Positions 1,907 through 52,909 of a DNA stretch of 64,000 bases are shown one piece after another (positions within the stretch are counted from its first letter, which is position 1; every line of letters starts with the position of its first letter). A program made the translations under genes and the position numbers. Location: positions 5,908-69,907 of the forward strand of contig DATGJN010000061.1 of the NCBI GenBank assembly GCA_035295165.1, given 5' to 3'. The notes under the pieces were generated by a model that did no database searches, was not told where the DNA came from, and saw only the letters and a list, made by a program, of their open reading frames with translations. Source of the stretch: a bacterium (GTDB lineage: Bacteria; Sysuimicrobiota; Sysuimicrobiia; Sysuimicrobiales; Segetimicrobiaceae).

Positions 1907-4003
1907 CTACGGCGCGGAGGTCCGACCGAACGAGCGGATCGTCGTCCGCAGCGCCTCCGGGTCCGCCTCCGGCGGCGCGCATGCGGTCGCCGTGCACGCG
2001 TACCCCCGGGGCGGTCCCGACGCGGCGCCGAGCGCCGCCGCCGGCGCAGGCAGCACCCCCGAGGCCGTCCGCGGATCGTAGAGATGCGCGATGACGCCGG
2101 GCCGATAGGTCGTGAGCGCCGCGTCGTGGAGCGCCGCTGTCCGCGGATCGTCGCCCGGCCCCACGACGACCACGTGAAGCGGCGGATCGAGGTGCGCGTC
2201 CAGCGCGTACGCGAGCGTCGCGGCGAACAAGCCGTGCTCAAGCGCACCCGGAGCGCACGCCCGGAGCGCGCGCTCCGCGGCGTCCCGGTATGCGGCGTTC
2301 CCCGTGACCGCCCACAAGCGATCGAGCACCATGACCGCGACGGCGTTGCCGGCCGGCGTCGGCGCGTCCTGCGCGGGCACGTGCGGGACGGCCAGTCCCG
2401 GCGCTTCGCGTTCGCGGGCGGCACCGCCCGCGACGTCATAGAACGCCCCTGCCGGCGTGACAAATTCAGCCATCACGTAGGCCATCGTCTCTTCGGCGAC
2501 ACGGAGATAGGCGGCGTTGCCGGTGTGTTCGAATGCGTCGAGCAGCGCCCGAGCCATGTGGACCTGATCGTCCAGGAGCCCGGTCACCGCCGTGGAGGCG
2601 CCCACGATGTGCCGGAACCCGCGGCCGGAGTCATAGGCCTCGCGCACGATCCGGTCGAGCGCCCGGAGCGCAGCGGCGCGCGGACCGCGGTCACCGAGGC
2701 CGCGCGCCGCGTCGAGCAACGCGGAGCTCATCATTCCGTTCCACCCCACGTAGACTGTCCGGTCGACAAACGGCGCGGGACGGCCCGCGCGCGCCTCCCG
2801 AAGATGCCGGGCGGCGCGCACGAGGAGCTCCTCGATCTCCGCCGCAGTCCGGCCGACCACCGGGGCGATCGCGTCGGCGTCCGTCGCGACGAACAGCACG
2901 TGGCGGCGGGGATCATGCTGCATCTCCCCCCGCCCGTTCAAATGGTAGGCCAGCCGCGCGGCGTCCATCTCGTCCGGCGGCAGCACGGCTGCGGCTTCCT
3001 CCGGCGTCCACGTGTAGTAGTCGCCGTCGTCCTCGAGCGAGATGTCGGCGTCCTGGCTCGCGTAGAACCCTCCATCCGCGGTGTCCGTCAATGTCTCGGA
3101 CACGTACGCGACGATCCCCCGCGCGGTGTCCCGGAACGTGGCGTTGCCCGTCGCCTGATAGGCATGGACGTAGTTGCGCAGTAACTCGGCGTTGTCGTAC
3201 AGCATCTTCTCGAAGTGCGGCACGGTCCACGACGCATCGACCGAGTACCGGTGAAACCCTCCGCCGATTTGATCGTAGACGCCGCCGTGCGCCATGTGCT
3301 CCAGCGTGCCCGTGACGATTAGCAGCGTCCCCGGGTCGCGCGTCCGATCGTACCGACGCAGGAGCAGCTCGATCGCTCCCGTATGGGGAAACTTCGGCGC
3401 GCCGCCGAACCCGCCGTGGCGGCTGTCGAACGCCCGCTCGCTCGCCGCGATCGCCGCGTCGACCAGCGCGGGGGACACGGTGTCGTCCGAGGACCGTGCG
3501 TCGGCGAGGCGCTGGAGCGTCTGGTGCAGTTCGTCCGCGTAGGCGTGGGCCTGGTCGCGCTTGGTCCGGTAGAACTCGGCGACGGCCCGGAGCACCTGCT
3601 TGAACCCGGGCCGGCCGGCCACAGCGTCTGGCGGGAAGTAGGTGCCCCCGAAGAACACCTTGCCCTCGGGCGTCAGGAAGGCGGTCAACGGCCACCCGCC
3701 CTGCCCGCTGATGGCGCCGACGGCTTGCTGGTAGCGGACGTCCACGTCGGGGCGCTCGTCGCGATCCACCTTCACGGGCACGAAGTGGGCGTTGATGAGG
3801 GCCGCGATCTCGGGGTTCTCGTAGGATTCGCGGTCGATCACGTGACACCAGTGGCACCAGACGGCCCCGATGTCGAGCAGGATCGGCCGATCCTCGCCGC
3901 GGGCACGGTCGAACGCGTCTCCCCCCCACGGGTACCACTCGACGGGCTGATGGGCGGCCGACCGCAGGTACGGACTGGCGGCGTCGCCGAGCCGGTTGGG
4001 CAT
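1907..4003 (-). CDS. Thioredoxin-domain protein, YyaL/DUF255 (SSP411-like) family
   Basis: 698-aa ORF. N-terminus NRLGDAASPYLRSAAHQPVEWYPWG...ILLDIGAVWCHWCHVIDRESY, followed by a long (alpha/alpha)6-type C-terminal region. Confidence 0.9.
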   Translation of the reverse strand: MPNRLGDAASPYLRSAAHQPVEWYPWGGDAFDRARGEDRPILLDIGAVWCHWCHVIDRESYENPEIAALINAHFVPVKVDRDERPDVDVRYQQAVGAISGQGGWPLTAFLTPEGKVFFGGTYFPPDAVAGRPGFKQVLRAVAEFYRTKRDQAHAYADELHQTLQRLADARSSDDTVSPALVDAAIAASERAFDSRHGGFGGAPKFPHTGAIELLLRRYDRTRDPGTLLIVTGTLEHMAHGGVYDQIGGGFHRYSVDASWTVPHFEKMLYDNAELLRNYVHAYQATGNATFRDTARGIVAYVSETLTDTADGGFYASQDADISLEDDGDYYTWTPEEAAAVLPPDEMDAARLAYHLNGRGEMQHDPRRHVLFVATDADAIAPVVGRTAAEIEELLVRAARHLREARAGRPAPFVDRTVYVGWNGMMSSALLDAARGLGDRGPRAAALRALDRIVREAYDSGRGFRHIVGASTAVTGLLDDQVHMARALLDAFEHTGNAAYLRVAEETMAYVMAEFVTPAGAFYDVAGGAAREREAPGLAVPHVPAQDAPTPAGNAVAVMVLDRLWAVTGNAAYRDAAERALRACAPGALEHGLFAATLAYALDAHLDPPLHVVVVGPGDDPRTAALHDAALTTYRPGVIAHLYDPRTASGVLPAPAAALGAASGPPRGYACTATACAPPEADPEALRTTIRSFGRTSAP

Positions 4004-4059
4004 GCGTCACCTCACTCGTTCCTTGCCTGCATTATATCCAACAGATCCGATCGAATGAG

Positions 4060-4110
4060 GGGGCTGAAATCGCACAGGGGTCCTCAAAAGGGGCTGAACC
4101 ACACACGGGG
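4060..4110. repeat. Two imperfect 21-nt direct repeats, period 30 nt
   Basis: GGGGCTGAAATCGCACAGGGG (4060-4080) and GGGGCTGAACCACACACGGGG (4090-4110). They lie 57-107 nt upstream of the yyaL-like start codon. Confidence 0.5.
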
Positions 4111-4358
4111 GGAAAAAATCGGGAGGCGCTCACCCCACCGGCTTGTCACCGTCTTCGGCCCTCGTCGCCGGTGCCTACTGCCGACCAGCCGTTCTCCGGA
4201 GTTACCCCCGAAGTACACTTGACCAGCTTTCGGCGTCCACGTGCGCGAGCGTTTGAATCGGCTACCTTTGCCGGAGAGCTTGCGCCTCCATCACTACTTG
4301 TAGCACACGGCCGATCTTCCCACAATCCGGAAACTTCGTTCGCGCAAGCTCCGGATAA

Positions 4359-4392
4359 TGTGGATAGCATCGTGTGGATAACTGGTGGACAA
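4359..4392 (+). promoter_or_regulatory. Cluster of three same-orientation DnaA-box-like 9-mers
   Basis: TGTGGATAG (4359-4367, 8/9), TGTGGATAA (4373-4381, 9/9, the reverse complement of TTATCCACA), GGTGGACAA (4384-4392, 7/9). Confidence 0.45.
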
Positions 4393-4405
4393 TCGGCCGG
4401 GTCGG

Positions 4406-4813
4406 CTATTTGGTGCTTTTGTCGACGAAATTTACGCGCAGATTCGTAAGGAGCGTCTCCATCTCGCGACGCGGCGCCTCCGGGAGTCGGCCGCGAACCA
4501 GGTCGAACACGGCGCCGTACCCGTCAATAGCCAACCGCGCGCTCGCCAAATCCTTCTCGACCTTGCCGGTCCGCATCGCGGGAACGAGCCCCATCCCTTC
4601 CCACGCCTTCGCCGCGAGCAACCCAAGGAACGAGATCATGATCTCCTCCGTCCCAAGCGCTGCGATCGGAACGGCCCGTTCGCCTTCCCCAGCCGGCCCC
4701 GGCGTGTCCGGGGCCTCCTGGCGTGCGCTCGCAGGTTCGCCCGGGGACGCCGGGGGTGTCTCGATGTCGCCCTGCTCTGCCGCCACGCGGTCACGATCGT
4801 CCATCGTCCTCAC
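4406..4813 (-). CDS. DUF1844 domain-containing protein
   Basis: 135-aa ORF. The C-terminal half, ISFLGLLAAKAWEGMGLVP...TGKVEKDLASARLAIDGYGAVFDLVRGRL...LLTNLRVNFV, matches the DUF1844 pattern. Confidence 0.75.
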   Translation of the reverse strand: MRTMDDRDRVAAEQGDIETPPASPGEPASARQEAPDTPGPAGEGERAVPIAALGTEEIMISFLGLLAAKAWEGMGLVPAMRTGKVEKDLASARLAIDGYGAVFDLVRGRLPEAPRREMETLLTNLRVNFVDKSTK

Positions 4814-4840
4814 CTCAGGCGCCCCGCATCGCGGGGCCGG

Positions 4841-6073
4841 CTACGCGGCCTGCGAGCGGTCGAGCCGCTCCATGGCCCGGCACAGCACCTGCGCGCCGCG
4901 CGCCACATCGTCCCACGCGGTCTGCTCGCGCGGCGAGTGGCTCACGCCGCCAACGCTCGGCACGAAGATCATGCCCGTCGGCACCAGCGCACCCAGGATC
5001 TTGGCATCGTGCCCCGCCCAGCTCGACATGGTCACGATCGGCCAGCCGAGATCGCCGGCGGCGGCCACGATTTCGTCGTGGATGCTGCGGTTCAGCGGCA
5101 CGGGCGTGTCGGACCGCCATGCGCGCACCTCCAGGGCCAGACCATACCGTGCGGCGCACGCGCGGCCGTCGGATTCGACGCGCTCGCGCAGGGACTCGAG
5201 CAGCCTGGCGTCCGAGCTGCGGAGCTCAACCGTGGCCGCGGCGCGACCTGGCACCACGTTCGTCGCGCCGGGGGAGAGCTCGAGGCGCCCGACCGTCCCG
5301 ACAGCCCGCCCTCCCGTATCGCGCACGATCGTGCGCACGGCGCCCACGAGGTCCGCCGCACCCCATAACGCATCCCGGCGCATGTCCATGGGCGTCGTCC
5401 CGGCGTGGTTCGCCTCGCCCGTGAACTCGAACACCGCCCGCGCGATACCCACGATCGCATCCACGGCGGCAAGCGGTGTTTCGCGCGCGGCCAGTACCGG
5501 GCCCTGCTCGATGTGCAGTTCCAAGTACGCGGCCATCGGCATGGGCATCGAGCGGCGGGGCAAGCCCGTATCGAACGCGCGAAGGGCGTCGGCCGCCGAC
5601 TGTCCCGCGGCGTCGTGCAGCCCCTCCAGGGCCGGCGCCCGGCCCACCACGCCCAACGAGCCGAGACACCCCACGCCGTACGAGGTCCCCTCTTCCTCGG
5701 CGAACGCGACGAGCAGCAGGGTGTGCTTCGGCCGGACCCCCGCATCGCGAAGCGCTGCCGCAGCTTCCACGGCCGCGAGCACCCCGAGCGCCCCGTCGAA
5801 CTTCCCGCCGTTTGGCACGGTATCGAGGTGCGAGCCGGCGGCGATCGGGGGCAGCGCGCCCGCCTCTCCCGGCACGACGCCGAACAGGTTTCCCCAGACG
5901 TCCACGGCCGGCTCGGCCCCGGCCTCGCGCATCCAACGCGCAACGCGCCGCACTGCGGCCGCGTGCTCCGTGCCGTACGAGAAGCGGCTGACACCCCCGT
6001 CGGGCGTCCGTCCGATCTCGGCGAGTTCGGTCAAGCGCGCGCGCAGCCGCTCCTCATCGATCCGCACTGCCAC
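4841..6073 (-). CDS. M20-family Zn-dependent amidohydrolase (allantoate amidohydrolase / N-carbamoyl-L-amino-acid hydrolase type)
   Basis: ...RLTELAEIGRTPDGGVSRFSYG...AAGSHLDTVPNGGKFDGALGVLAAVEA...LVAFAEEEG... GTG start at 6073 is preceded by GGAGGG. The upstream part of the 697-aa ORF overlaps the permease gene and was discarded. Confidence 0.85.
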   Translation of the reverse strand: MAVRIDEERLRARLTELAEIGRTPDGGVSRFSYGTEHAAAVRRVARWMREAGAEPAVDVWGNLFGVVPGEAGALPPIAAGSHLDTVPNGGKFDGALGVLAAVEAAAALRDAGVRPKHTLLLVAFAEEEGTSYGVGCLGSLGVVGRAPALEGLHDAAGQSAADALRAFDTGLPRRSMPMPMAAYLELHIEQGPVLAARETPLAAVDAIVGIARAVFEFTGEANHAGTTPMDMRRDALWGAADLVGAVRTIVRDTGGRAVGTVGRLELSPGATNVVPGRAAATVELRSSDARLLESLRERVESDGRACAARYGLALEVRAWRSDTPVPLNRSIHDEIVAAAGDLGWPIVTMSSWAGHDAKILGALVPTGMIFVPSVGGVSHSPREQTAWDDVARGAQVLCRAMERLDRSQAA

Positions 6074-12789: not shown

Positions 12790-13767
12790 CTAGGCCTCCC
12801 GGGCGGCCATGATCGCCGCGCGAATGTTGGCCTCCGGCGTGTCCACCGGCATGACGCACCCGGTCGTCACGATGTGCCCGCGGCCGCCCGTGTCTGCGAT
12901 GGCCGCCTGCACCTCGCGCACGACCGCCTCCGGCGTCGCCTTGGCGAGCGTATTCCACGCGTCGATGCCGCACGCGAGGCACGTCGCGACGCGGGCACGA
13001 GCCTCGGCGATCGTCGGCGCCGTCTCGCGGGCGTGCCAGTTGAGAATCTGGATCGGATAGTTGGCGATGAGATCGAACATCACGTTCTGCCCGTGGAGGT
13101 GGAGGAACGTCAGCCCGCCGGAGGCGGCCTCGAGCACGCGCAGATCGTACGGACGGCCGAACTCCTCGTACTCCTCCACGGTCAACAGATCCGTCGTGGC
13201 CATCTGCGTCGAGAAGAAGACGCCGTCCGCGCCCGCGCCCATGACCTCGCGGACGAACGCAGCGGTGACGTCGGTGATCACGTCCAACCCCTGGTGCAGC
13301 GCCTCCGGATCCTCCCGCAGGTAGCGCACGGTCGCGTGCTCCCCCGCGAGCGTCCGGGCGATGCTCAGGGGGCTGAACACGGTCTCGAGCACCGCCACCT
13401 CGCGCCCGACGGCCTCCGCGACCAGCCGCATCGCGTGGGTCTCGCGGCCGTACACACCCTGGCTCGGGTCGAGCCGCTTGAGGCGCCCCCAATCGGCGGC
13501 CTTTTTGATCGGCCGCTCGGTGTAGTGACGAACGCCCTCCCGGTTCGGCTTGTACCCGGCGCGCAGCCCCCAGTCGTCTCCGTAGTACCCGCTCGCCGGC
13601 GTCACCTTGAGCAGATCCGGGTCGTAGGCGCGATAGTGCGCCACATGGACCCGCGCCATCTGTTCTGCGCGCTGGTCGTCGCCCGGAAAGTGGCGCCACA
13701 GCGCCACGGGCACGTGGTCCGGCCGCTCCCCCCGCACAGCGGCGTCGATCCGCTCCCGATGCGTCAT
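12790..13767 (-). CDS. Uroporphyrinogen decarboxylase (URO-D) family protein
   Basis: 325-aa ORF. RERIDAAVRGERPDHVPVALW... with URO-D/MtaA-like layout. Function is not assignable from the sequence. Confidence 0.75.
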   Translation of the reverse strand: MTHRERIDAAVRGERPDHVPVALWRHFPGDDQRAEQMARVHVAHYRAYDPDLLKVTPASGYYGDDWGLRAGYKPNREGVRHYTERPIKKAADWGRLKRLDPSQGVYGRETHAMRLVAEAVGREVAVLETVFSPLSIARTLAGEHATVRYLREDPEALHQGLDVITDVTAAFVREVMGAGADGVFFSTQMATTDLLTVEEYEEFGRPYDLRVLEAASGGLTFLHLHGQNVMFDLIANYPIQILNWHARETAPTIAEARARVATCLACGIDAWNTLAKATPEAVVREVQAAIADTGGRGHIVTTGCVMPVDTPEANIRAAIMAAREA

Positions 13768-14867
13768 TGCCGATCCTCCTTTGCCAGCCCCGGAGCATTC
13801 GCGTCGCGGCCTGCCCGCGCGGTCGCCGACCCCGCGGCCCGCAGCATGCCCGCCGCACCGTCCACGCGGGCGGGATCGCCGTAGATCTCGCGCAACGAAT
13901 CGAGCGTGATGTTGCCGCCGCTCAGGACCAACACCACGGTCTTGCCCCGCAGCCGCTCGCGGAGGCGGAACGCCGCCGCCGTGCTTGCGGCGCCCGCGCC
14001 CTCGGCGGTCTGGCGCACGGCCTGCGCCAGCACGAGGATCGCGCGCCGCATCTCCTCGTCGGTGACCAAGACCGCTTCATCGAGGTGCGCCCGAAGAATG
14101 GTGAGCGGCAGCGCAAACGGCACGCGCGTGGCGATGCCCTCGGCAAACGTCTCCATGCGCTCCAGGCTGACCATCCGGCCTTCGCGCAGCGACCGCTCCA
14201 CCGGATTGGCGCCCTCCGCCTGGACGCCGATGACCTGAACCCGCCGGTTGAGCGCCTTCGCCACGATGCAGTGGCCGCACGCGCCGCTGCCGGCCCCGAT
14301 CGGCACCACGATCACGTCGACATCCGGCACGTCCTCGAACACTTCCAGACTCGCGGTCCCCACCCCGGCGATCAGCAGCGGCTCGTTGGCCGAGTGCACG
14401 TAGCGGAGCCCCCCAGCCTCGGCGGTGCGCTCCGCCCACTCTCGGGCCTCATCGAAATCGCGCCCCTCCAGCACGACCTCGGCGCCCAGCGCCCGCATCG
14501 CCGCCACCTTGAGCGGGTTATTGCCTCTCGGCGCGACGATCGTCGCCCGCACGCCGAACATCCGCGCCGCGTAGGCGATCGACTGGCCGTGGTTCCCCGT
14601 GCTCGCCGTGATCACGCCCCGCCGCCGCTCCTCCGGCGAGAGCGCGTGGACCAGATTGATGCCGCCGCGCACCTTGAACGCACCGGTCGGCAGCAGATTC
14701 TCACACTTCACGTACACGCGCGCGTCCAGCGCCCGGTCGAGCGTCGGGGCGTGCACGAGCGGCGTACGCGGCAGGTGCGGCGCAATGACGCGACGGGCCA
14801 CGAGCACGTCGTGGATCGTCGGCAGCGGTCCGGTCCAGGGTGCGTCATGCATCGTCGGTTCACTCAT
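13764..14867 (-). CDS. PLP-dependent threonine/serine dehydratase family protein
   Basis: ...VYVKCENLLPTGAFKVRGGINLV...ITASTGNHGQSIAYAA...VPIGAGSGACG. ATG at 14867. ATGA overlap with the URO-D-like gene. Confidence 0.85.
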   Translation of the reverse strand: MSEPTMHDAPWTGPLPTIHDVLVARRVIAPHLPRTPLVHAPTLDRALDARVYVKCENLLPTGAFKVRGGINLVHALSPEERRRGVITASTGNHGQSIAYAARMFGVRATIVAPRGNNPLKVAAMRALGAEVVLEGRDFDEAREWAERTAEAGGLRYVHSANEPLLIAGVGTASLEVFEDVPDVDVIVVPIGAGSGACGHCIVAKALNRRVQVIGVQAEGANPVERSLREGRMVSLERMETFAEGIATRVPFALPLTILRAHLDEAVLVTDEEMRRAILVLAQAVRQTAEGAGAASTAAAFRLRERLRGKTVVLVLSGGNITLDSLREIYGDPARVDGAAGMLRAAGSATARAGRDANAPGLAKEDRQ

Positions 14868-14941
14868 GCGACACGCTCGCGGGAAGTCTTTCGTGTGCTT
14901 TCGCCGGGAGCCGCCGCAACTCCCGCACCGCGCCCGCCGGC

Positions 14942-16228
14942 TCACCCGGCGCCTGCGCCGCCGCCGGAGGTGAACTGGGACACGATGAGCGCGAGGGTCA
15001 GGATCACCATGACGATCGTCGTGACCCACGCGATCACGTTGAACGCCCGGGAGTTGGTGTAGGTGCCCATTAGCTTCTTTTGGTTGACGAGCAGCAGCAT
15101 GAACACGAGGATGAACGGCAGCAGAATGCCGTTGGCCACCTGCGACAGGAACAGGATCTGCAACAGCGGCGCCCCGGGGAGCAACACGACCACGCACGCG
15201 ATCACGATCAGCGCGATGTACAGCCCGTAGAACGCCGGCGCCTGCCGCACCGTGCGGTCCACGCCCGCTTCGAACCCGAACGACTCGCACACGTAGTGAG
15301 CCGTCGCGAGCGGGAGCACGGACGCCGAGAACAACGAGGCGTTGATCAGGCCGAGGGCGAACAGCGCGGCCGCGTACTGGCCGGCGAGCGGACGCAGCGC
15401 GAGCGCTGCGTCCTGGACCGTCTCGACGTGGACGTGGTGCACGAAGATCGTCGCCCCGCACGCGACGATGATGAACCACGCGACCACGTCGGTCATAATC
15501 GAGCCGATCAGCACGTCGGTGCGTGTGTAGCCGTACTGCTTGGTCGTGATCCCCTTTTCGACGACGGCGGACTGCAGGTAGAACTGCATCCACGGCGCGA
15601 TCGTCGTCCCGATGACGCCGACGAACATCGTCAGGTAGTCGGCCCGGAAGCTGAAACTGGGGGTCACCGTCGCGCGCAGCACCTCGCCCCAGTTCGGGTG
15701 CGCGAGCACCCCGGACACGACGTACGCGAGATAAAACGCGCTGGCAAACAGGAAGATGCGCTCGACCGAGCGGAACGTCCCCTTGACGACGAGGATCCAG
15801 ACGGCGAGGGCACCGATCGGCACCAGAATGTACTTGGACACGCCGAAGATCTCCCCGCCGGCCGCGAGCCCGGAAAACTCCGCCATCGTGTTCCCGAGAT
15901 CGGCGAGGAGGAGCGCGAGCAGGGCGAACGCGGTCGCGCGGACGCCGAATCGTTCCCGAATCAGGTCGGCGAGCCCGACGCCGGTGACGGCGCCCAGCCG
16001 CGACGCCATCTCCTGGATGACGTACAGGGCGATCGTGATCGGGATCATCGTCCACAGAAACGCGTAGCCGAACCCCGCGCCGGCAAGCGAGTAGGTCGTG
16101 ATCCCGCCCGCGTCGTTGTCGACGTTCTGGGTCACAATCCCGGGCCCCATGATCACGAGGAACAGCATGAGGCGGCTCATCGCGGCGCTGCGCGTCGCCC
16201 GCCGAAGGATCGGGAGCGTGAAGCTCAC
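14942..16228 (-). CDS. Nramp/SLC11-family transporter with NRMT-type (Mg2+-type) metal-site substitutions
   Basis: 428-aa multi-TM ORF that aligns without gaps to the MntH TM1 region, but with DAGG instead of DPGN and GTTIAPW instead of GATVMPH. Confidence 0.85.
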   Translation of the reverse strand: MSFTLPILRRATRSAAMSRLMLFLVIMGPGIVTQNVDNDAGGITTYSLAGAGFGYAFLWTMIPITIALYVIQEMASRLGAVTGVGLADLIRERFGVRATAFALLALLLADLGNTMAEFSGLAAGGEIFGVSKYILVPIGALAVWILVVKGTFRSVERIFLFASAFYLAYVVSGVLAHPNWGEVLRATVTPSFSFRADYLTMFVGVIGTTIAPWMQFYLQSAVVEKGITTKQYGYTRTDVLIGSIMTDVVAWFIIVACGATIFVHHVHVETVQDAALALRPLAGQYAAALFALGLINASLFSASVLPLATAHYVCESFGFEAGVDRTVRQAPAFYGLYIALIVIACVVVLLPGAPLLQILFLSQVANGILLPFILVFMLLLVNQKKLMGTYTNSRAFNVIAWVTTIVMVILTLALIVSQFTSGGGAGAG

Positions 16229-17523
16229 GGGCCCGGTGGTGCGCCCGCCGCCCGGCGGCGGACCAGGTCGACGCCGCCTCCGAGCTTGCGGGGACCGTAC
16301 TCCTCGAGAAGGAGGTCGATCACGTGGTCCACCGTCACCACGCCGATCAACCGGCCGCTCTCCTCCACCACCGGCACCGCGAGGAGGTCGTACTTGACGA
16401 GCGCCCCCGCGACGTCCTCGGCGCTCGCGTCGGGCGGGACGGTGATGACGTGACGGAACATCACCTCCGAGATCGGCGCCGCAGGCGACGCGATGATCAA
16501 CGCCCGGATCGACAGCACGCCGACGAGACGCTCGTGGCCGTCCACCACGTACAGGTAGTTGATCGTGTCCGCGTCGGGCCGGGTCTCCCGCAGCCGCGCC
16601 AGCACCTGCTCCACCGTCATCGACTCCGGGAGAGCGATGTATTCCGTCGTCATCTTACCGGCGGCGGTGTCGGGCGGGTACTGAAGGAGCCGGCTGACCT
16701 CCTCGGCCTTCTCGTCCTCCATCAGGGCGATCAGTTCCTCGGCCCGCTCCTCCGGGAGCTCGCCGAGCACGTCCGCTGCCTCGTCCGGCGCCATCTCCTC
16801 GAGGATGTCGGAAGCGCGCTCGCTCGGGAGCTCCTGGATCACCGTCGTCTGCACCTCGGGCTCCGCCTCTTCGAGCACGTCCGCGGCGCGCTCCTCGGTC
16901 AGCGCGGTCATCATCTCGACCCGCTCGTCCCGGTCGAGCTCCTCGAGCAGGTCGGCGAGGTCCGCCGGGTGGATGTCTTTGAGCTTCTCGCGCGAGATAC
17001 TGAGCTTGAGCGGGGTCATCGTCCCGCCAAGGACCGCGACGAGGTTCCAGGGGATGACGCGCGAGGAGAGCGGCCGCCCGACTCGCTCGAGCATGCGAGA
17101 GACGGCCGGCTCCAGCCCGAGACGCCGCAGGATCGCGCGCGTGCCGACGTCGGCGCCAATCACCCGGACTTCGGTGCCGGTCTGCCGCAACTCGAGATCG
17201 TTCACCCGCACGACCTTGATGTCGTCTGTGTCCACGACCTGGCCGTCCAGGATGTCGTCGCGCAGGAGGATCTCCTCCGGCTGCAGCGGGCGGGGCGTGA
17301 GGTGACGCCGCTCCACCTTGAGGCGGATGCCGGACGCGGAAAACTCGGCGACGGCGTCCCACGGGATGATCGCCACGCGGCTGCGGTCGCCTTTCAGGAG
17401 GATGCCGGTGATCCTCGGAAATCGCTCGGTGCCATGGTAGATCACCAGGTCCGACACGGTATCGAACGCCTCGCCGGTCGCGTCGTGCACCGGCTTCCCG
17501 ATGACCTCGCTCAGGTAGCGCAT
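16225..17523 (-). CDS. Soluble PRC-barrel + MgtE N-terminal domain + CBS-pair protein (MgtE cytosolic module without a membrane domain)
   Basis: MRYLSEVIGKPVHD... (PRC barrel). ...IHPADLADLLEELDRDERVEMMTAL...AADVLEEM..DEAADVLGEL (MgtE_N). ...MTTEYIALPESMTV...LAVPVVEESGRLIGVVTVDHVIDLL (CBS pair). No hydrophobic C-terminus. GTGA overlap with the Nramp gene. Confidence 0.85.
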   Translation of the reverse strand: MRYLSEVIGKPVHDATGEAFDTVSDLVIYHGTERFPRITGILLKGDRSRVAIIPWDAVAEFSASGIRLKVERRHLTPRPLQPEEILLRDDILDGQVVDTDDIKVVRVNDLELRQTGTEVRVIGADVGTRAILRRLGLEPAVSRMLERVGRPLSSRVIPWNLVAVLGGTMTPLKLSISREKLKDIHPADLADLLEELDRDERVEMMTALTEERAADVLEEAEPEVQTTVIQELPSERASDILEEMAPDEAADVLGELPEERAEELIALMEDEKAEEVSRLLQYPPDTAAGKMTTEYIALPESMTVEQVLARLRETRPDADTINYLYVVDGHERLVGVLSIRALIIASPAAPISEVMFRHVITVPPDASAEDVAGALVKYDLLAVPVVEESGRLIGVVTVDHVIDLLLEEYGPRKLGGGVDLVRRRAAGAPPGP

Positions 17524-18008
17524 TCGCCGCTCTCCGCTGTCCACTTCATGCGGTGCATGTAGGTGCGGAAGCCGAGGCGCTCCCAGAACCGCACGGCCTC
17601 CGGGTTGCGAACCGCCACGGTCAGCTCCACGAGAGTGACGCGCCGCTCCCGAAACCACGCGAGCAGCGCCTCGACCACGCTCCGGCCGATCCCGTGGCCC
17701 CGCCGCTCCGGCAGCGTGAAGACGTCCTGGATCCACCCCCGGCGCTGCGCACGGAAGGGGAGCGGGAGCACGTGGATCCGGCCGAGCGCGAACGACACGA
17801 CATGCTCGCCTTCCACGCCGAGCATGATGCGGGCATCGCCGTACCCGATCGTGTCGCGCAAGAACGCTGCATACTCGCGCGCTGCGGTCCGCTCCACAGC
17901 CAACGCCGGGTCGAGCGCACCGTGATGCGCCGCGAGCGCCTCCCACAGCGGCAGGATCTGCGGGATGTCGCGGATCGTGGCAGCCCGAACCTGGACGTGG
18001 GCGATCAT
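17511..18008 (-). CDS. GNAT family N-acetyltransferase
   Basis: 165 aa. ...IQDVFTLPERRGHGIGRSVVEALLAWF...VELTVAVRNPEAVRFWERLGF. Its 3' end overlaps the MgtE-N/CBS gene start by 13 nt. Confidence 0.8.
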   Translation of the reverse strand: MIAHVQVRAATIRDIPQILPLWEALAAHHGALDPALAVERTAAREYAAFLRDTIGYGDARIMLGVEGEHVVSFALGRIHVLPLPFRAQRRGWIQDVFTLPERRGHGIGRSVVEALLAWFRERRVTLVELTVAVRNPEAVRFWERLGFRTYMHRMKWTAESGECAT

Positions 18009-18106: not shown

Positions 18107-18943
18107 ATGCCGGATTTCTCCCCATACATCGTGCCCGCGCTCCGGGCCGCCGGCGCGGCCGGCGCGATCCAGCGATCGCTGATCGGTCGGACGCGTGTGG
18201 ACTACAAACGGCCCCAGGACCCCGTGACCGAGGCGGATCGCTCGTCCGAGGCAACGATCATCCGGATCCTCGGCGACGCCTTCCCCGGCCATGCGTTTCT
18301 GGGCGAGGAGGGCGGCCAGCGCGGCACCGCCGACCACACCTGGGTGATCGACCCGCTCGACGGCACCCACAACTACGTGCACGCGTTCCCGTGGTTTGCG
18401 GTCAGCATCGCGCTACGGCACCGCGACGAGATCGTCTGCGGCGTGATCTTGAACACGATGCTGCGCGAGGTCTACGTCGCGGAGCGGGGAGCCGGCGCGT
18501 ACGCCGCTTCCGTCGAGACGCCGTACGAAGCCACGGACTGGACGGCGGTCCGGTCGTGGCGCCGCATCCACGTCTCCCCGGTCACGCGGCTCGAGGACGC
18601 GACGCTGTGCACCGGGTTCCGGCATCCGGTCGAGCCGGCACGGCTCAACCTCGATCACTTCACGAACCTGCTCGTGCGGGCGGCCCGGATTCGCGAGATC
18701 GGCTCGGCGGCGCTCAGCCTGGCGGCGGTGGCCCTCGGACAGATGGAAGGCTACTGGGAGATCGGGCCGCACGCGTGGGACTTCGCGGCCGGGATGCTGC
18801 TCGTCGCCGAAGCCGGCGGGCGGACGACCGACCTCCGCGGACGGCCCGCCGGGGCCGACCGCGGGCAGATCCTCGCGACCAACGGGGCCGTTCACGATCA
18901 CGTCGTGGCCGTGCTGGCCGAGGGCCACAGCGCGATAGACTGA
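18107..18943 (+). CDS. suhB: Inositol monophosphatase family protein
   Basis: 278 aa. DPVTEADRSSE...FLGEEGG...WVIDPLDGTHNYVH...WDFAAGMLLVAEAGG. Confidence 0.85.
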   Translation: MPDFSPYIVPALRAAGAAGAIQRSLIGRTRVDYKRPQDPVTEADRSSEATIIRILGDAFPGHAFLGEEGGQRGTADHTWVIDPLDGTHNYVHAFPWFAVSIALRHRDEIVCGVILNTMLREVYVAERGAGAYAASVETPYEATDWTAVRSWRRIHVSPVTRLEDATLCTGFRHPVEPARLNLDHFTNLLVRAARIREIGSAALSLAAVALGQMEGYWEIGPHAWDFAAGMLLVAEAGGRTTDLRGRPAGADRGQILATNGAVHDHVVAVLAEGHSAID

Positions 18944-46323: not shown

Positions 46324-47510
46324 GCCGCCTCGCGCCTACCTTTCATCTCCGGCTGCTCCGCCGAAGCCGGTGGCGCGTCGCCCTGCTGGGGGCGCTCGTG
46401 GTCACGGGGGTGCTCGGCGCCCTGGCGTCGGGCGCGTACGTGACGCTCAAGAGCGCTACCTACGCCCGCCTGTACGAGCGGTTGGAGATCGCGGCAATGC
46501 GCGTCTCGGGCATCGAGGGAAGCCAGCTCTACGTCGTGGTCGACGAGCGGGGCCGACCGCTGGTCGGGATTCCTCAGCTGGAAGGCTCGGTGGCGTCGTG
46601 GGAAGGGTTCCGGATCGTCACCGACCCTCAGGTGGGCGCGTTTGCGGTCCTCCATGTGCCGATCGCCGGCGGCGGCATGCAGGTGATCGCCACTCCCTGC
46701 CAGGAGGAGATCAGCGTGCTGCGCGAGGTGCTGCGGGTGCTGACCGCGCTGACGTTGACGGGGGGCCTCGTCGCCCTGCCCGTCGGGTATGCGCTCGCGG
46801 GCTTGGCCCTTCGACCGCTCGACGACGCGGTGCGGGAGCGCAGCGAGTTCGTGGCGCTGGCGTCCCATCAGCTCCGCACGCCGCTCGCCGTCATCAAGAC
46901 GTCCGCGGAGCTGGCGCAGGCGGGACGGGGTCTCTCGCCCGATGAGGCGCTTCGCACGATTGCGCAGCAAACCCAGCGGATCGAGGCGCTGGCGGCGCGC
47001 CTCACCGCCCTCGGCCGCGCTGAAACAGACGCGAAAACCCAGGTCGCGCTGATCGATCTCAGCGAAGTCGTACAGGACGTGGTGACAGGTCTTGCGGCGG
47101 CGGCGCAGCAGAAGGGCGTCACGGTCGGCGTCGAGGGTGAACCGGCGTGGATCCGCGTGGACCGCGACGCCGCCGCCGACATGATCACGGCGATCGTCGA
47201 GAACGCGATCCAGTTCTCGCCGGCAGGCGGGACCGTCTCGGCGCGCGTCCGCGCGCATGGCGGACACGCCATCGCCGAGGTCGAGGACCGCGGGCCCGGG
47301 ATTCAACCGGAGGAGTTGCCCCTGGTGACGGACCCATTCTATCAAGGCCAACGGGCCCGCGGCGGCTATGGGCTGGGGTTGGCGATCGCACGAGCGGTCG
47401 CAGAGCGGCACGGCGGACGGCTCACGATCGAAAGCGTCGTGGGCCGGGGGACCACCGTGCGAGTGTCGCTTCCCGCCCGACCGGCCCCGCCCGGTGTTGC
47501 GCCCGCGTAG
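46320..47510 (+). CDS. Sensor histidine kinase
   Basis: N-terminal TM, H-box FVALASHQLRTPLAVI, N/G boxes ...NAIQFSP...DRGPGI...GYGLGLAIA. GTGA overlap with the regulator. Confidence 0.85.
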   Translation: MSRLAPTFHLRLLRRSRWRVALLGALVVTGVLGALASGAYVTLKSATYARLYERLEIAAMRVSGIEGSQLYVVVDERGRPLVGIPQLEGSVASWEGFRIVTDPQVGAFAVLHVPIAGGGMQVIATPCQEEISVLREVLRVLTALTLTGGLVALPVGYALAGLALRPLDDAVRERSEFVALASHQLRTPLAVIKTSAELAQAGRGLSPDEALRTIAQQTQRIEALAARLTALGRAETDAKTQVALIDLSEVVQDVVTGLAAAAQQKGVTVGVEGEPAWIRVDRDAAADMITAIVENAIQFSPAGGTVSARVRAHGGHAIAEVEDRGPGIQPEELPLVTDPFYQGQRARGGYGLGLAIARAVAERHGGRLTIESVVGRGTTVRVSLPARPAPPGVAPA

Positions 47511-47639
47511 GGGATGAATCGTATGCGGGGAAACGGTCAAGGGACTGGCGTACAATCCCCTTCCGTAAGCGCGAGGGGGTTCGTCGCGGGCGGGTGGCTC
47601 TCGTCGGCGCCCATGTGCATGCCGCGCCGCAACCGACCC

Positions 47640-48038
47640 GCACGCCCTATACCTTCGTGTTCCTCTTATCTGCCAATTATCTGCCAACCAGCCTAGGAGT
47701 AGTGCCCAGAAACTGAAGCCAAGAAAAAGGCACAGGGTGTCCAAGCTCAGGGCAAACCGATACTTCAGCAATAGCAGTATTATTAGTCCCGCTGACAACC
47801 GGAAGAACCCCAAACCGAACTCGCGAGTTTGGGCTATTTTGATCTCGTGATCATCGGACGGTGCATGGTCTCTGAGAAATTGAACAGATGAACCATGCTC
47901 ATATCCAAACACATGCCAGATCGGAAGTAGGGAAAGTCGTTTAGGATATCCATTGCAGCCTGTATAATCCCTGCGTTCAGGTGCTGGTCCGCGGAGTCTC
48001 AACAACCCCATGCTATCCGCGGATGCAACTCTTTGCAC
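47640..48038 (-). CDS. Low-GC hypothetical ORF, probably 3'-truncated at the island boundary
   Basis: ATG at 48038. ...FGLGFFRLSAGLIILLLLKYRFALSLDTLCLFLGFSFWALLLGWL (hydrophobic). There is no stop until the frame runs antisense through the kinase gene, so its natural 3' end appears lost. Confidence 0.2.
47666..47687. repeat. Exact tandem duplication of an 11-mer at the GC-content break
   Basis: TTATCTGCCAA TTATCTGCCAA (47666-47676 and 47677-47687). Confidence 0.8.
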
Positions 48039-48042
48039 CTCC

Positions 48043-48450
48043 TTACGAATGTGGGGTCGATGTGAATCCGCGATAGGTCAGATAGATGCCGACAATAAGT
48101 GAAATGGCCGCGTACACGTAGAAGAGCTGCTGATAGTGCAAATTCGCAAGGAACAATCCAGCTTCCATGTCCTGCGGCAGGAACAGAAAGAGCAGACCCT
48201 TGAGCAGCGCTGTCCAACCGATCAGGGTGACAATCACCGCCAGCGCGCCACCCGACCAGATATTGTGCGCGAGAACCATCGCCAACCCAGCGCCAAGCGT
48301 GATTACACCGACGACAAACATCGCGGGGGCGTCATGAAGAAGGGCCGTTACCGTCACCACGGTGGCCTGTTTGTGAAGGATCATGGATAGCGCTACGAGC
48401 GTACAGTATAGCCCGAGCAGCCTGCTAAGAAAAACCGTGAGCGGCGACAT
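48043..48450 (-). CDS. Small integral membrane protein (4 predicted TM), unknown function
   Basis: ATG at 48450 preceded by GGAGGG. MSPLTVFLSRLLGLYCTLVALSMIL... Confidence 0.6.
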   Translation of the reverse strand: MSPLTVFLSRLLGLYCTLVALSMILHKQATVVTVTALLHDAPAMFVVGVITLGAGLAMVLAHNIWSGGALAVIVTLIGWTALLKGLLFLFLPQDMEAGLFLANLHYQQLFYVYAAISLIVGIYLTYRGFTSTPHS

Positions 48451-48639
48451 GGCGCCCTCCAACTTGAGTCGAAACGCTACGCCGTGCCACGACCACGCCG
48501 TGGAACGGGACGTGCGACAACGTGAACTACGTCATGAAAGGTATCCCAGATGCAAACTGTTCTGTTTCTCGTACCGCCGACCCCGAGGATTGAAAGATTT
48601 GGTCCACTCATTGGACGCACAAAAATTGCACCGAAATAC

Positions 48640-48684
48640 TGGCTCCTCGGGTAGGACTCGAACCTACAACCCTCCGGTTAACAG
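48640..48684 (-). other. 3' half of a tRNA-Asn(GUU) gene (anticodon loop to CCA), with no 5' half: an att-type remnant
   Basis: Minus strand: CTGTTAA-CCGGA-GGGTT-GTAGGTTCGAGTCCTAC-CCGAGGA-G-CCA. Upstream sequence cannot pair with the anticodon or acceptor 3' strands. Confidence 0.7.
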
Positions 48685-48691
48685 TCGTGGC

Positions 48692-49180
48692 CTAAGATGC
48701 GCCCGCCCTTATTTTCCACGAGTTCCCGTGTCTTGCCTCCGTTCTGCGGGAGGTGCAATGGAGGTGTAGCCTATTGACGCGCTCACCGCTCGGCTCCCGC
48801 GCCGCCGGCTCCTGCATCCCCGGGAGCACGTGCGCGTAGGTGCCGAGCGTGAACTGGGCCGAGGCGTGCCCGAGCCGCGCCTGCACCACCTTGATGCTGA
48901 CGCCCCGCTGTAGGAGATAGGACCCGTGGGCGTGGCGGAGGTTGTGAATCCCGCGCCGTCGGGCAATCCCAAACACCGACACAGTGGCTGGAGGTCGCGC
49001 AGTCGGAAGTTGTGGACGCGGGCGGGCTTCCCGGTCGGCTGGCAAAACACGAGGCCGAGATCGTGCCATTTGGGGCATTGTCGCCGCGGGCACGCACCCC
49101 CTTGCTCACACAAACCATGCCGGCCGAGACGCCGGACCCGCTCCGTCGCCCGCCGCTCGCGGACGGCGCGCAAAGGAAAT
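48692..49180 (-). pseudogene. Tyrosine recombinase (phage-type integrase): C-terminal catalytic region only, frameshifted
   Basis: Frame a: ...LGLVFCQPTGKPARVHNFRLRDLQPL... Frame b: ...RRGIHNLRHAHGSYLLQRGVSIKVVQARLGHASAQFTLGTYAHV (HxLRH...LGH...Y). No N-terminal domain. Confidence 0.7.
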
Positions 49181-49513
49181 CATTCGCCGCGATGCTACTG
49201 AACCCGCAGCGTTTAAGCACAAGGCGTGACTCATCAATATCAATCTCAATCGGACTGCCGCTAAACCTTCGCTGTACGAGGCCACTCGGCACGCGTGGAA
49301 GATAAGTTGATCTAATGTCAAGCAGGCCGAGGTGATTCTGGCAGTCATTCAGGGGCTCATTGTCGGCGCCTTTGTTGCAGACGACTGGTTGCCTGCAAGA
49401 TCAGCGAACTTTCCAGGCCCCGAGGATGTACCCGGCCGGTTTGGCTTCGTAGCCGGGAGGCTCCTATGGAAATACAAAGGGCGTACGTGAGCAAGCGCGT
49501 TCCTGATGAATAA

Positions 49514-49690
49514 GAGGCCCGGATTCTCGCGATCGCGGACAGCTACGACGCGATGACCACGTATCGCGTCCACCACAAAGCATTGTCGCATGAACGGGCC
49601 ATAGTGGAGTTACGCTGCGAAACAGGACGGCAATTCGATCCGCAGTCGGTCAACCTGCTGATCGAACGTCTGACGAGCGAGAACAACGAG
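49514..49690 (+). pseudogene. C-terminal fragment of an HD-GYP/HD-domain protein
   Basis: Directly after an in-frame TAA: EARILAIADSYDAMTTYRVHHKALSHERAIVELRCETGRQFDPQSVNLLIERL. No upstream HD domain. Confidence 0.55.
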
Positions 49691-50265
49691 CCAAGCGAAC
49701 ACCACTCTCGCGGGTGGGATCGTCCGGGGCGAGATATAGACAGCAGCCGCGAGGAGAAAAGCCCGTCGAAGTCGAGTACTCAGAATGCCTCGCCGACGAG
49801 CTGCATTCAACGTCGCTGAAACGCCTCCGCAGATGTCTGGCGTTCAGCACCCATTGGCACAACGAGGATTACTGTCGCGTTACCGAGAGCCCGTTCCCGA
49901 GTCGTCGCCGGGGGCGGGCTCGTTTGCCGCGGATGGGCGGGCAGGAATTGAATGAGCCCCCGTCTTAGTCCAACGCGTTTCCCTCCCCGGCGTGAAGTGG
50001 ATCGCGACAACCCGGCGCGCCTTCACACGGCTTGGACTCGATAAGCCAGGGCCGACGAGCTTTCCCGCGCCCTTAGCCCATGCTGGCCGAACCGGGGAAA
50101 GCAGCGTTCGACCATGAGGAAATGGATTGATGAGCCGATGCGGGCACGTTCGGAGTCTTCGCCGGTATCCGCGAGAGGAGGTGATGGACTGCGCCACAAA
50201 ACCTAGCAACGCAATGTGCTGCGATAGAACCAGCGCATTCAAAACGTTCGAAGAGGAGAACCAGA

Positions 50266-50688
50266 ATGGCCCAGACGACTGTTCACGTACGAAATATTCG
50301 CGGGGCTTCGGCGGCGGTTGGCTGGACCGGACATCGCACGGTTACGGTAGACCGAGCCGAGCAAGCAGGCGGGATGGGCCTCGGGTTCAACGGCGGCGAG
50401 TTATTATTGTTAGCCATTGGAGCATGTTACACAAACGACCTGTACCGCGAAGCGGCGAAGCAGCAGCTCACGATCCAAAGCGTGCAGGTGGATGTGGATG
50501 CTGATTGGAGTGGCGATCCTGTTCGGGCGCAGAATGTGTCTTTCTCCGTGAAAGTCGAAGCCCGTGCCAGCGAGCGGGAAATCCTCGATCTGATCACCCA
50601 CACCAATCGAGTCGCAGAAATCCATAATTCTCTTAGAATGGGCACAGCTGTTGAACTCGGCAAGACAGAAGCAATCTCAGTCAGGTAA
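50266..50688 (+). CDS. OsmC family protein (peroxiredoxin-like)
   Basis: 140 aa. ...GFNGGELLLLAIGACYTNDL...ILDLITHTNRVAEIHNSL. Confidence 0.85.
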   Translation: MAQTTVHVRNIRGASAAVGWTGHRTVTVDRAEQAGGMGLGFNGGELLLLAIGACYTNDLYREAAKQQLTIQSVQVDVDADWSGDPVRAQNVSFSVKVEARASEREILDLITHTNRVAEIHNSLRMGTAVELGKTEAISVR

Positions 50689-51023
50689 TAGAAAGGCCCA
50701 CTTCAAAGGGGAGCGCGTCAGCGCTGGGCCGGTAGGCAGCGGGCTTTCAATGGAGACTCGCAAGATGATCCCCGAAGAACTCAAAGCGACCCGTGCCGAG
50801 ACCTGTCGGTTCGCGCCAGTGCCGACTCTCCGAGACCACTGGGGCGAGCTGCGTACAGATTTGACGCCACACTAGGTGAAACCCACACTCGTCGTTGAAG
50901 TGGTATACCGCCGGTTCGCGGACGCGGGCTACGCCATGTGTCTCTGAAAGCACTACGAGCGGAAAAGGAGCCCCACGAGGTTCGGTTTTCCTAACCGACC
51001 TGGTTGACTTGCTGGCCGACATC

Positions 51024-51962
51024 ATGAGACGGGGAATCGGCGTTCTCAGGCGAGTAGTCGAGGCGGTGGTGCCCGAGCCTGCGCTCATCGCGCTTGCCGC
51101 CCTGCGCGGGCACAAGCGGACATTCGGTGTGTATCCGAATCTCATCTCTCCGAAGACATTCAGCGAAAAGGTGCTGTACCGCTTGATCTTTGATCGACGA
51201 CCGCTGTTGATTACGCTGCAAGACAAGTACGCAGTGCGCGACTACGTCCGGGACAGAATCGGGGAACACATGTTGCCACGACTCTACTGGGTAACCAAGA
51301 CGCCGGCGGACATTCCGTTCGACGATCTTCCGGACAAATTCGTGGTGAAGGCCACGCACGGCAGTGGTTGGGTCCATCTCGTTCCCGACAAGGCACGCCT
51401 TGACCGGCGCGACCTCCTGGATAGATGTACATGCTGGCTGCGATGGAACTATTACAATTACGCACGGGAGTGGGCGTACAAACATATCGAACCCCGGATC
51501 ATCGTAGAGGAGTTTATCAGCGACGGTAGGGGGCCGGCCCCTGTGGACTACAAGTTCTACGTTTTTGGCGGCAAAGTTCACTTGATCTATGCGATCATCG
51601 GGAGATTCATTGACGTTCGAAACAATGGGTACACGCGCTCCTGGGATCGAATCGAGATGAAGACGCGGGGGAAATCAATCGACCAGCCGATGCCACGCCC
51701 ACCCCATCTCGATGAGATGCTCGAGTACGCTGAGAGACTCGGTGACGGGCTCGACTTTCTCCGCGTGGACCTCTACGACGCCGGCAAAGTGTATTTCGGG
51801 GAAATGACATTGTATCCGAGCGCGGGCGGTGAGTTCTTCGACCCAAAGTGGAATCGTTATTTTGGCGAGCTATGGAATCTTCGGGTTCGTTCGCTTCGTC
51901 GCGACAAGTCCGATAGTGTAATCTCGACGAGTCCTCAAGGACCGCATCGGCACCGCAGCTGA
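51024..51962 (+). CDS. ATP-grasp fold amidoligase family protein (TupA-like)
   Basis: ...NLISPKTFSEKVLYRLIFDRRPLLITLQDKYAVRDYV...KFVVKATHGSGW...DYKFYVFGGKV...LRVDLYDAGKVYFGEMTLYPSAG. Confidence 0.8.
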   Translation: MRRGIGVLRRVVEAVVPEPALIALAALRGHKRTFGVYPNLISPKTFSEKVLYRLIFDRRPLLITLQDKYAVRDYVRDRIGEHMLPRLYWVTKTPADIPFDDLPDKFVVKATHGSGWVHLVPDKARLDRRDLLDRCTCWLRWNYYNYAREWAYKHIEPRIIVEEFISDGRGPAPVDYKFYVFGGKVHLIYAIIGRFIDVRNNGYTRSWDRIEMKTRGKSIDQPMPRPPHLDEMLEYAERLGDGLDFLRVDLYDAGKVYFGEMTLYPSAGGEFFDPKWNRYFGELWNLRVRSLRRDKSDSVISTSPQGPHRHRS

Positions 51963-52272
51963 GGGGCGGCTGGATCGTCGAAGCCGCGCGATAGACGGCC
52001 GCCTGAGGCACTCGCCGTTTCAGTCTGCACTGCCATTGGCTCCGATCGCCTGTTCATCGACGACAAATTGTCCACACCATGCTAGCCACATTGTCCCGAT
52101 TTTCCGCGAACGAAGAAGCCGGATTGTGAGGGAGTTGAGGCCATGGTACAAGTAGTGACGGAGGCGCAAACCCTCCGCCAAAAACCCCGACTTCAACGCT
52201 CGAGCCCCCCGTCAGGCGTACTTCGGGAGTCCTCTGGAGAACGACTAACCGGGCGGCGCAGGCGACAAGACG

Positions 52273-52866: not shown

Positions 52867-52909
52867 CCGGAACGCAGGACGACTTGAGCGCCGAACAAAA
52901 GCAATCCCC

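Follow-up and report, generated by a model that had tools for sequence, protein, structure and literature searches.

The stretch of DNA analysed here (the window) comprises 64,000 nucleotides from an uncultured, high-GC bacterium of the Segetimicrobiaceae (phylum Sysuimicrobiota; GenBank assembly GCA_035295165.1, contig DATGJN010000061.1, positions 5,908 to 69,907). On its minus strand lies a gene for a soluble protein that resembles the cytosolic part of MgtE magnesium channels, hereafter the sensor, which runs directly into a gene for a permease of the Nramp family (Table 1). Judged from sequence, the two appear to form a divalent-cation uptake unit of two polypeptides, of the 'mgtE-like / nrmT' type. 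The sensor reading frame opens with ATG, preceded by GGAGAG, and its stop codon overlaps the start codon of the permease; no purine run of the Shine-Dalgarno type was seen in the sequence upstream of this junction. Sigma-70 promoters and terminators were sought within the sensor-permease unit with nothing informative found. Coordinates, domains and site motifs of both proteins, together with the adjoining genes, are collected in Table 1.

Table 1. Features of the sensor-permease locus and of the genes beside it (positions within the window; aa, amino acids; TM, transmembrane helix; ORF, open reading frame)
Feature	Position	Strand	Description
Stand-alone sensor gene	16225..17523	-	432 aa; tandem PRC-like module + MgtE_N + CBS pair
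PRC-barrel 1 (residues 2-70)	17314..17520	-	PF05239, E 1e-7; beta-barrel in AlphaFold2 models
Second PRC-like beta subdomain + two helices (residues 84-164)	17032..17274	-	Alignment A2; hhalign; CdpB alignment
MgtE_N helical domain (residues 184-285)	16669..16974	-	PF03448, 104.3 bits
CBS pair (residues 291-406)	16306..16653	-	PF00571, two stretches, 82.8 bits
GTGA stop/start overlap, sensor/permease	16225..16228	-	Sequence 'CCC GTG AGC'; sensor stop TGA
NRMT-clade Nramp permease gene (assigned by sequence)	14942..16228	-	428 aa; GTG start; Pfam Nramp
TM1 site motif D39-A-G-G42	16103..16114	-	= EleNRMT D55...G58; classical Nramp DPGN
TM6 site motif G207-T208-T-I-A211-P-W213	15590..15610	-	= EleNRMT T224, A227, W229; classical Nramp GATVMPH
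GNAT acetyltransferase gene	17511..18008	-	165 aa; Pfam Acetyltransf_1
PALP (PLP-dependent threonine-dehydratase-like) gene	13764..14867	-	74 nt past permease; profile matches
Further 325-aa ORF, end of co-directional string	12790-13767	-	ORF call

As a stand-alone protein, the sensor is homologous to the cytosolic domain of MgtE and carries an additional N-terminal module. Residues 177-409 align with residues 21-256 of Thermus thermophilus MgtE (TtMgtE) at 43-44% identity (168 bits against the cytosolic domain, 2YVY), and an AlphaFold2 (AF2) model of the sensor (pLDDT 78) superposes on 2YVY, a Mg2+-bound structure, in Foldseek with a target-normalised TM score of 0.82 and a root-mean-square deviation of 2.7 Å. 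The fold of N domain and CBS pair is thus common to the sensor and TtMgtE (2YVX, 2YVY, 2ZY9, 5X9G), but the sensor has no five-helix pore and is extended by about 170 N-terminal residues. The MgtE pore domain (PF01769) has no Pfam match in it, the single hydrophobic window in a Kyte-Doolittle scan falls within the first CBS motif, and 26 residues past the second CBS motif the permease begins. Both analyses agree with an earlier reading of the window from its letters alone (the sequence-only reading), which had described a PRC-barrel, an MgtE_N domain and a CBS pair without a membrane segment. More than 100 homologues at 55-99% identity are each 422-473 aa long and possess the same set of domains.

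Residues 1-176 of the sensor have no counterpart in MgtE. Folded alone by AF2 (pLDDT 79.8, pTM 0.71), this N-module finds archaeal CdpB1/CdpB2 in Foldseek (135-143 of 176 residues), followed by reaction-centre H subunits, MTH1859 and RimM (targets 8qzo, 1prc_H, 1pm3 and 3h9n; 16-25% identity, E 5e-4 at best). The reaction-centre H subunit, CdpB1/CdpB2 and RimM share the PRC fold with the N-module, and no functional link is implied. A hhalign comparison of the region around residues 84-125 with barrel 1 (E 6e-4, probability 28%) and double PRC matches in two sensor homologues hint at a second PRC-like barrel that arose by internal duplication. This second region harbours the most conserved motif of the family, LDxQ(I/V)VDxxGxKVVRVND...ADVGxxGLxRRLG...W159, and residues D93, R106, N108, R133, R134, L135 and W159 are invariant in an alignment of 15 sensor sequences (A2). 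The conserved tandem PRC-like N-module is a feature of the sensor newly described here.

The permease is assigned by its sequence to the NRMT clade of Nramp-related Mg2+ transporters and not to MntH. Its Nramp domain (residues 43-394, 321.9 bits) spans profile positions 1-357 of 357 in PF01566. Against all Protein Data Bank (PDB) sequences its best match is EleNRMT (7QIA; 392.9 bits, E 1.7e-116), and it is 47% identical to the crystallised EleNRMT construct over 402 residues (18-419) without a gap; the best MntH match in the same set, Deinococcus radiodurans DraNramp, reaches 95.9 bits and plant NRAT 44.3 bits. The permease fails both NCBIfam models concerned, with 146.7 bits against a cut-off of 430 for MntH NF001923 and 64.2 bits against 272.5 for TIGR01197. 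The NRMT site has been defined as DxxG-TxxA/T versus DxxN-AxxM (Ramanadane et al., PMC8806188). In the permease, where TM1 and TM6 align without gaps to the DPGN and GATVMPH motifs of DraNramp, the canonical MntH motifs DPGN and A-x-x-M-P-H are absent and DAGG and TTIAPW stand in their place. The sequence-only reading had singled out these motifs as NRMT-type; they lie at the corresponding sites, and neither bit scores nor NCBIfam cut-offs group the permease with MntH.

The likeness to EleNRMT extends to all 14 site positions checked (EleNRMT 55-58, 133, 223-229, 232 and 379), which are the same in both proteins. The TM3 glutamate (E117) and the TM10 glutamine (Q363) are kept, and both proton-pathway histidines of helix 6b are replaced, by W213 and L218. 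In EleNRMT, for which Mg2+ and Mn2+ transport without proton coupling has been shown, D55, Q379 and T224 matter for transport and the helix-6b histidines are likewise replaced (PMC8806188). Because the site residues match, we infer with good grounds that the permease transports Mg2+ and Mn2+ and does so without proton coupling.

The pairing of sensor and permease is conserved well beyond the window. Loci were gathered from the permease side (80) and from the sensor side (80, drawn from at least 580 genome matches to a profile of eight sequences, alignment A3). A sensor gene accompanies the permease in 72 of the 80 permease-anchored loci, in 70 of them directly upstream on the same strand and in two downstream; two of the eight loci without a sensor end at a contig edge. 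From the sensor side the pairing is found in 66 of 80 loci, with an NRMT gene immediately downstream in 64 and adjacent on the other strand in two, and a further three lie on short contigs. The pairing is kept in more than 130 independent loci and is not due to chance. The GTGA overlap with a 428-aa Nramp gene, which the sequence-only reading had pointed out, is typical: a junction of -4 nt is the commonest value, which 39 of the 117 pairs parsed at other loci show; once the window pair is counted in (118), 52 junctions measure 0 nt or less and 88 do not exceed 30 nt. The loci come from Bacillota-like metagenome-assembled genomes (MAGs), Desulfosporosinus, Pelosinus, Chloroflexota, Nitrospirota, Acidobacteriota, Eremiobacterota, Bacteriovoracaceae, Coriobacteriia and methanogenic archaea, and the records closest to the window pair are labelled Bacillota, Armatimonadota or 'bacterium' MAGs. 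In an Eggerthella locus (L128), the sensor lies upstream of a permease 75% identical to EleNRMT. The divergence of sensors and permeases is correlated (r = 0.68, versus about 0 for shuffled partners), which carries little weight because shared descent alone would give this value. Public annotation of the pair is often misleading, naming the sensors 'magnesium transporter' and the permeases 'Mn2+/Fe2+ NRAMP transporter'.

Among the 160 loci, two apparent fusions of the pair were rejected. At L075 a genuine stop codon separates the genes, which share a frame by chance. An 815-aa reading frame at L010:3993-6482 is an assembly or pseudogene artefact of a low-quality ANGP1 MAG contig, in which frameshifts disrupt the CBS region of the sensor as well as the PALP gene, and the permease has an internal deletion.

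The PRC+MgtE_N+CBS module also occurs in other contexts, and these link it to Mg2+. A search of 1.84 billion representative proteins with the N-module returned 1476 matches (533 at E<=1e-10), among them proteins of about 400-499 aa, a group measuring 550-656 aa and a single protein with 1314 aa. Proteins of 590-660 aa represent the module fused to an MgtE pore, as seen from PF01769 matches in P0251, P0297 and P0376 and from about five hydrophobic segments in P0253, P0255 and P0268 (593-656 aa). In this last protein and in six other clusters, which are 57-60% identical to it (1265-1318 aa, four sources), the module is N-terminal to a P-type ATPase, whose nearest unfused relatives are annotated as the Mg2+-translocating MgtA; these seven clusters comprise P0392, P0267, P0390, P0391 and P0393-P0395. 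The P0392 fusion is identical in three independent assemblies (L162:5001-8948, L163:5001-8948 and L164:3157-7104), where it lies directly downstream of mgtC and a ZIP transporter gene; no M-box was found at these three loci. Fusion of the module to MgtE pores and to MgtA-type Mg2+ ATPases is new here, and no mention of the MgtA fusion was found in the literature searched.

The three forms share a common core. W159, the KVV-R-V stretch (103-107) and R133 are kept in the MgtE- and MgtA-fused forms, where D93, N108 and R134 vary, and the equivalents of TtMgtE D91 and D95, together with a leucine at the F227 position, are kept in stand-alone, MgtE-fused and MgtA-fused forms alike. The 'ED' pair of the plug helix persists only where an MgtE-type pore follows the module. 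Given that the motif core, W159 and the D91/D95 equivalents are common to all forms, the module is best regarded, on this comparison, as one evolutionary unit of which every identifiable partner is a predicted Mg2+ importer. The presence of the same tandem PRC-like module in the fused channels suggests that the stand-alone sensor and the PRC-bearing MgtE channels share a recent origin. In four further proteins of 749-781 aa (P0416, P0419, P0420 and P0421, the last from a 131-kb Coriobacteriia contig), a stretch of about 330 residues follows the module; it contains several hydrophobic segments, matches no Pfam family, and may represent a diverged pore of the MgtE type or a membrane domain of another kind.

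A second link to Mg2+ is regulatory. An M-box riboswitch lies directly upstream of the sensor gene at two Desulfosporosinus loci, in Pelosinus and at two other Bacillota (Firmicutes) MAG loci. In the Pelosinus MAG (L141), two tandem M-box aptamers, at 3275-3452 (163 bits) and 3593-3764 (161 bits), lie upstream of the sensor-NRMT operon.

The window locus belongs to a kind that has been known from the literature since 2014 and occurs in hundreds of genomes, but is mechanistically uncharacterised. [quoted passage not shown] The sequence-only reading, in which such a system was not known to have been characterised, read the sequence accurately but overstated the novelty, since the pairing and the feedback idea were both in that paper. 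In the operons of that study (C. acetobutylicum CA_C0685 and CA_C3329; A. capsulatum ACP2976-ACP2977), as in the window, the MgtE-cytosolic homologue is encoded on the same strand immediately upstream of the NRMT. The window locus differs in its uncultured high-GC lineage, its GTGA overlap and the GNAT gene overlapping upstream. The A. capsulatum pair, like the window, has no M-box, whereas the C. acetobutylicum operon has one, as do the Desulfosporosinus and Pelosinus relatives. The window sensor is likened to ACP2976 by the description in that paper and by the Acidobacteriota and Firmicutes relatives in our locus sets. PRC or CBS domains of the MgtE-like partner are not mentioned in PMC4072509, the partner protein is not discussed in the EleNRMT paper (PMC8806188), Cellier 2022, a 2026 Nramp preprint or two reviews, and our literature search found no paper naming both PRC-barrel and MgtE.

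Other transporters offer a precedent for control by a CBS module. In ClC, CorB/CorC-CNNM and OpuA/OpuC a cytosolic CBS pair controls the transporter in response to an intracellular ligand (PMC10710835). Those modules are fused to a transporter or ATPase subunit; the module in the window is a separate polypeptide beside a LeuT-fold permease. EleNRMT, whose structures (7QIA, 7QIC, 7QJI, 7QJJ) share all checked sites with the window permease, was studied alone.

How far the sensor retains the chemistry of MgtE was assessed by mapping the TtMgtE sites (taken from PMC5882242 and PMC5529423) onto 62 members of the sensor family. The N-domain Mg2+ ligands are close to invariant, with aspartate at the D91 position in 61 members and at the D95 position in all 62, and aspartate or glutamate at the E59 position in 58. 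In the window sensor these correspond to D247, D251 and D215, respectively, and with D379 and D403 they make up the acidic Mg2+-site residues kept. The MgtE_N domain as a whole is strongly acidic (34 D/E versus 7 K/R in 102 residues). In the nomenclature of the TtMgtE structures, the acidic N-domain residues of Mg4, Mg6 and Mg7 are kept in the family and the plug-helix pair of Mg2/Mg3 is lost.

On balance we favour, by a modest degree, a model in which the soluble protein responds to Mg2+ and regulates the NRMT by direct action, most probably by braking an uncoupled importer. The permease would import hydrated Mg2+ (and Mn2+) without proton coupling, and the stop/start overlap would cause the sensor to be produced in step with it. 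The sensor would bind Mg2+ from the cytosol in the conserved cluster of acidic residues that lies between the N and the CBS domains, and change conformation once Mg2+ is bound, as the MgtE cytosolic domain does. With Mg2+ in sufficient supply, the sensor may then act on the permease at its cytoplasmic face and brake uptake by feedback. The contact between the two proteins, the ligand and the sign of regulation are all deduced from indirect evidence and are put forward as such. That CA_C0685 and CA_C3329 complement Mg2+ uptake without an MgtE-like partner (PMC4072509) fits a regulator and not an essential subunit. The absence of proton coupling in EleNRMT would imply that an uncoupled importer of so abundant a cation needs a brake. 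A broader proposal, which we advance with somewhat less assurance than the model itself, is that PRC+MgtE_N+CBS constitutes a portable cytosolic Mg2+-sensing gate that works in cis on MgtE and MgtA and as a trans subunit docking on the LeuT-fold NRMT permease.

Several observations weigh against this model. Within the sensor, the CBS-side Mg2+ ligands vary, with aspartate at the TtMgtE D226 position in 17, at D247 in 46 and at D250 in 26 of the 62 members, and the D247 equivalent in the window sensor is His400. The plug-helix pair E258/D259, which bridges sensor and pore in MgtE, is absent from the sensors, many of which stop right past the second CBS motif. Mutation of TtMgtE F227 abolishes ATP binding (PMC5529423), and this adenine-stacking position is leucine or methionine in 61 of the 62 members and never aromatic (Leu380 in the window). 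Other ATP-pocket positions are mixed in the window sensor, Y170 and R187 being kept as Y323 and R340 and D188 and N203 being replaced by Ala and Phe, two positions without conservation across the family. With the N-domain acids kept and the F227 and plug-helix sites lost, sequence comparison makes it plausible that the N/CBS acidic cluster binds Mg2+, and lends no support to ATP modulation or plug-helix coupling in the manner of MgtE. The analogy to the MgtE sensor drawn in the sequence-only reading consequently stands for the N/CBS fold and the N-domain acids, and does not extend to the plug-helix pair, the ATP-stacking phenylalanine or the extra PRC module.

Gene arrangement and experiment supply the remaining counter-evidence. 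Eleven of the 80 sensor genes have no NRMT gene within 4 kb, and three NRMT loci with intact site motifs (L013, L015 and L016) have no sensor within at most 6 kb. The window itself has no M-box: no M-box or other Rfam element was detected in it at the gathering threshold, and around the operon none appeared even at E<=10. The only fusion of sensor and Nramp found, P0417 (L161:1601-4504), is a 967-aa reading frame that joins the sensor module to about three hydrophobic segments and an NRMT (NDAGG, GTTIAPW). It is unverified, lying on a lone 5.5-kb ENA contig with a transposase gene upstream, and may be genuine or a chimera of the assembly. Co-expression of ACP2976 with A. capsulatum ACP2977 gave no better rescue, and ACP2977 rescued mainly Mn2+ uptake, restoring the Mn2+ defect fully and the Mg2+ defect partly (PMC4072509).

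Some of these loci merit separate description. A substitute transporter adjoining the NRMT-less sensor genes was ruled out, since their neighbours are unrelated (UvrB, SLT, Ser/Thr kinase, DUF885, PhyH, and TRAP and ABC permeases). Four loci from Acidobacteriota and Pyrinomonadaceae (L116, L119, L130 and L139) encode a sensor of 410-415 aa at 4001-5248 with no NRMT within 4 kb; should these sensors have a partner, its gene lies elsewhere. The two of these loci scanned with Pfam, L116 and L130, have an SLT transglycosylase gene upstream of the sensor, and L116 has a Ser/Thr kinase-TPR gene downstream; reading-frame sizes and orientations in L119 and L139 resemble those of L116 and L130. The NRMTs of L013, L015 and L016 are 62-65% identical to the window permease, and the L013 contig leaves about 4.2 and 2.6 kb in which a sensor could be sought. 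Like P0417, two other ENA singletons, P0418 (half AcrB, with an N-terminal sensor part as in P0417) and P0436 (part MatE), look chimeric, and none of the three was used as evidence.

A competing explanation, to which we give clearly less credence than to a Mg2+-responsive regulator, is that Mg2+ is not what the partner senses, its ligand being Mn2+, some further cation, or else a nucleotide or metabolite that binds to the CBS pair, or that it serves as an activator or as a metallochaperone passing ions, and not as a brake. The preference of the A. capsulatum permease for Mn2+ rescue is in keeping with such a role, as is the Mn2+ sensing or chaperone activity already suggested by Shin et al. 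(PMC4072509), and EleNRMT carries Mn2+ besides Mg2+ (PMC8806188). The variable CBS-side ligands point the same way, as does the lack of an M-box in the window and in most non-Firmicutes relatives. Adenosine ligands are moreover common in CBS pairs, and AcuB, CBSX and IMPDH are among the Foldseek neighbours of the sensor; against a nucleotide, however, the adenine-stacking position is never aromatic. The N-domain acids needed for Mg2+-dependent closure of MgtE are near-invariant, which argues for Mg2+ over another cation, and the identifiable fusion partners are all Mg2+ importers (the MgtE pore, and MgtA beside mgtC), with the Firmicutes operons under M-box control.

It is improbable, in our estimation, that the genes are merely co-expressed and their products make no contact, the soluble protein having some other target in Mg2+ physiology that it might reach by way of its PRC barrels, for instance. 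Barrels of this type are general-purpose modules for protein binding; that of RimM binds ribosomal components and that of CdpB binds division proteins. Such an arrangement would account for the 11 unlinked sensor genes, and for NrmT transport that needs no partner and co-expression without effect (PMC4072509). It sits poorly with adjacency that is tight and widespread and with the stop/start overlaps. The same module is covalently joined to two other types of transporter, which argues that its target is the accompanying transporter. A truncated or frameshifted mgtE pseudogene lying by accident beside an Nramp gene could be read into the TIGR00400 mgtE match of the sensor, which covers profile positions 21-254 of 450 and scores 203.7 bits against a cut-off of 232.75. 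That explanation is refuted and retains practically no probability: the sensor is not a broken mgtE because its homologues are uniform in length and domain content, no pore remnant follows in any frame, the Nramp gene starts directly after the 26-residue tail, and the pairing recurs across independent loci. A direct, Mg2+-responsive regulator of the NRMT thus remains the reading we prefer.

The genes around the pair are of a more local character. The minus-strand string of five reading frames from 12790 to 18008 (GNAT, sensor, NRMT, PALP and the 325-aa frame) is compact, with overlaps of 13, 4 and 4 nt and a single gap of 74 nt. The GNAT gene, which overlaps the sensor start by 13 nt, is probably co-transcribed with it. 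The suggestion of the sequence-only reading that it may belong to the same unit did not hold in other genomes: a GNAT gene is present only in L001-L004, L011, L012 and L014, that is in 7 of the 12 near-relative loci, and in none of the more distant ones, and the PALP gene is similarly confined to the closest relatives. As it is found only there, GNAT lies outside the conserved unit, and it and PALP are lineage-specific neighbours. A 98-nt spacer, in which no sigma-70-like promoter was found, separates the string from a divergent 837-nt reading frame (18107-18943) that reads like an inositol-monophosphatase family protein. Further along, at 47000-57000 of the window, GC content falls from about 0.69-0.73 to 0.57-0.63 and no high-GC3 reading frames were detected; this segment may be an island gained by horizontal transfer.

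NRMTs are the fourth known bacterial route of Mg2+ uptake, and how cells keep such uncoupled importers from overloading the cytoplasm is a question on which the partner may bear. Structural work on EleNRMT was done without the partner, though Eggerthella genomes encode it beside the transporter. If a trans-acting Mg2+ gate does operate here, EleNRMT and CabNRMT would so far have been studied without their physiological regulator, and the sensor and permease would provide a defined two-protein system for the allosteric control of a LeuT-fold carrier. Such a gate would also be the first demonstrated case of an MgtE-type sensor regulating transporters whose folds are unrelated, and the MgtE sensor would then represent a transferable regulatory device deployed on three unrelated Mg2+ importers.

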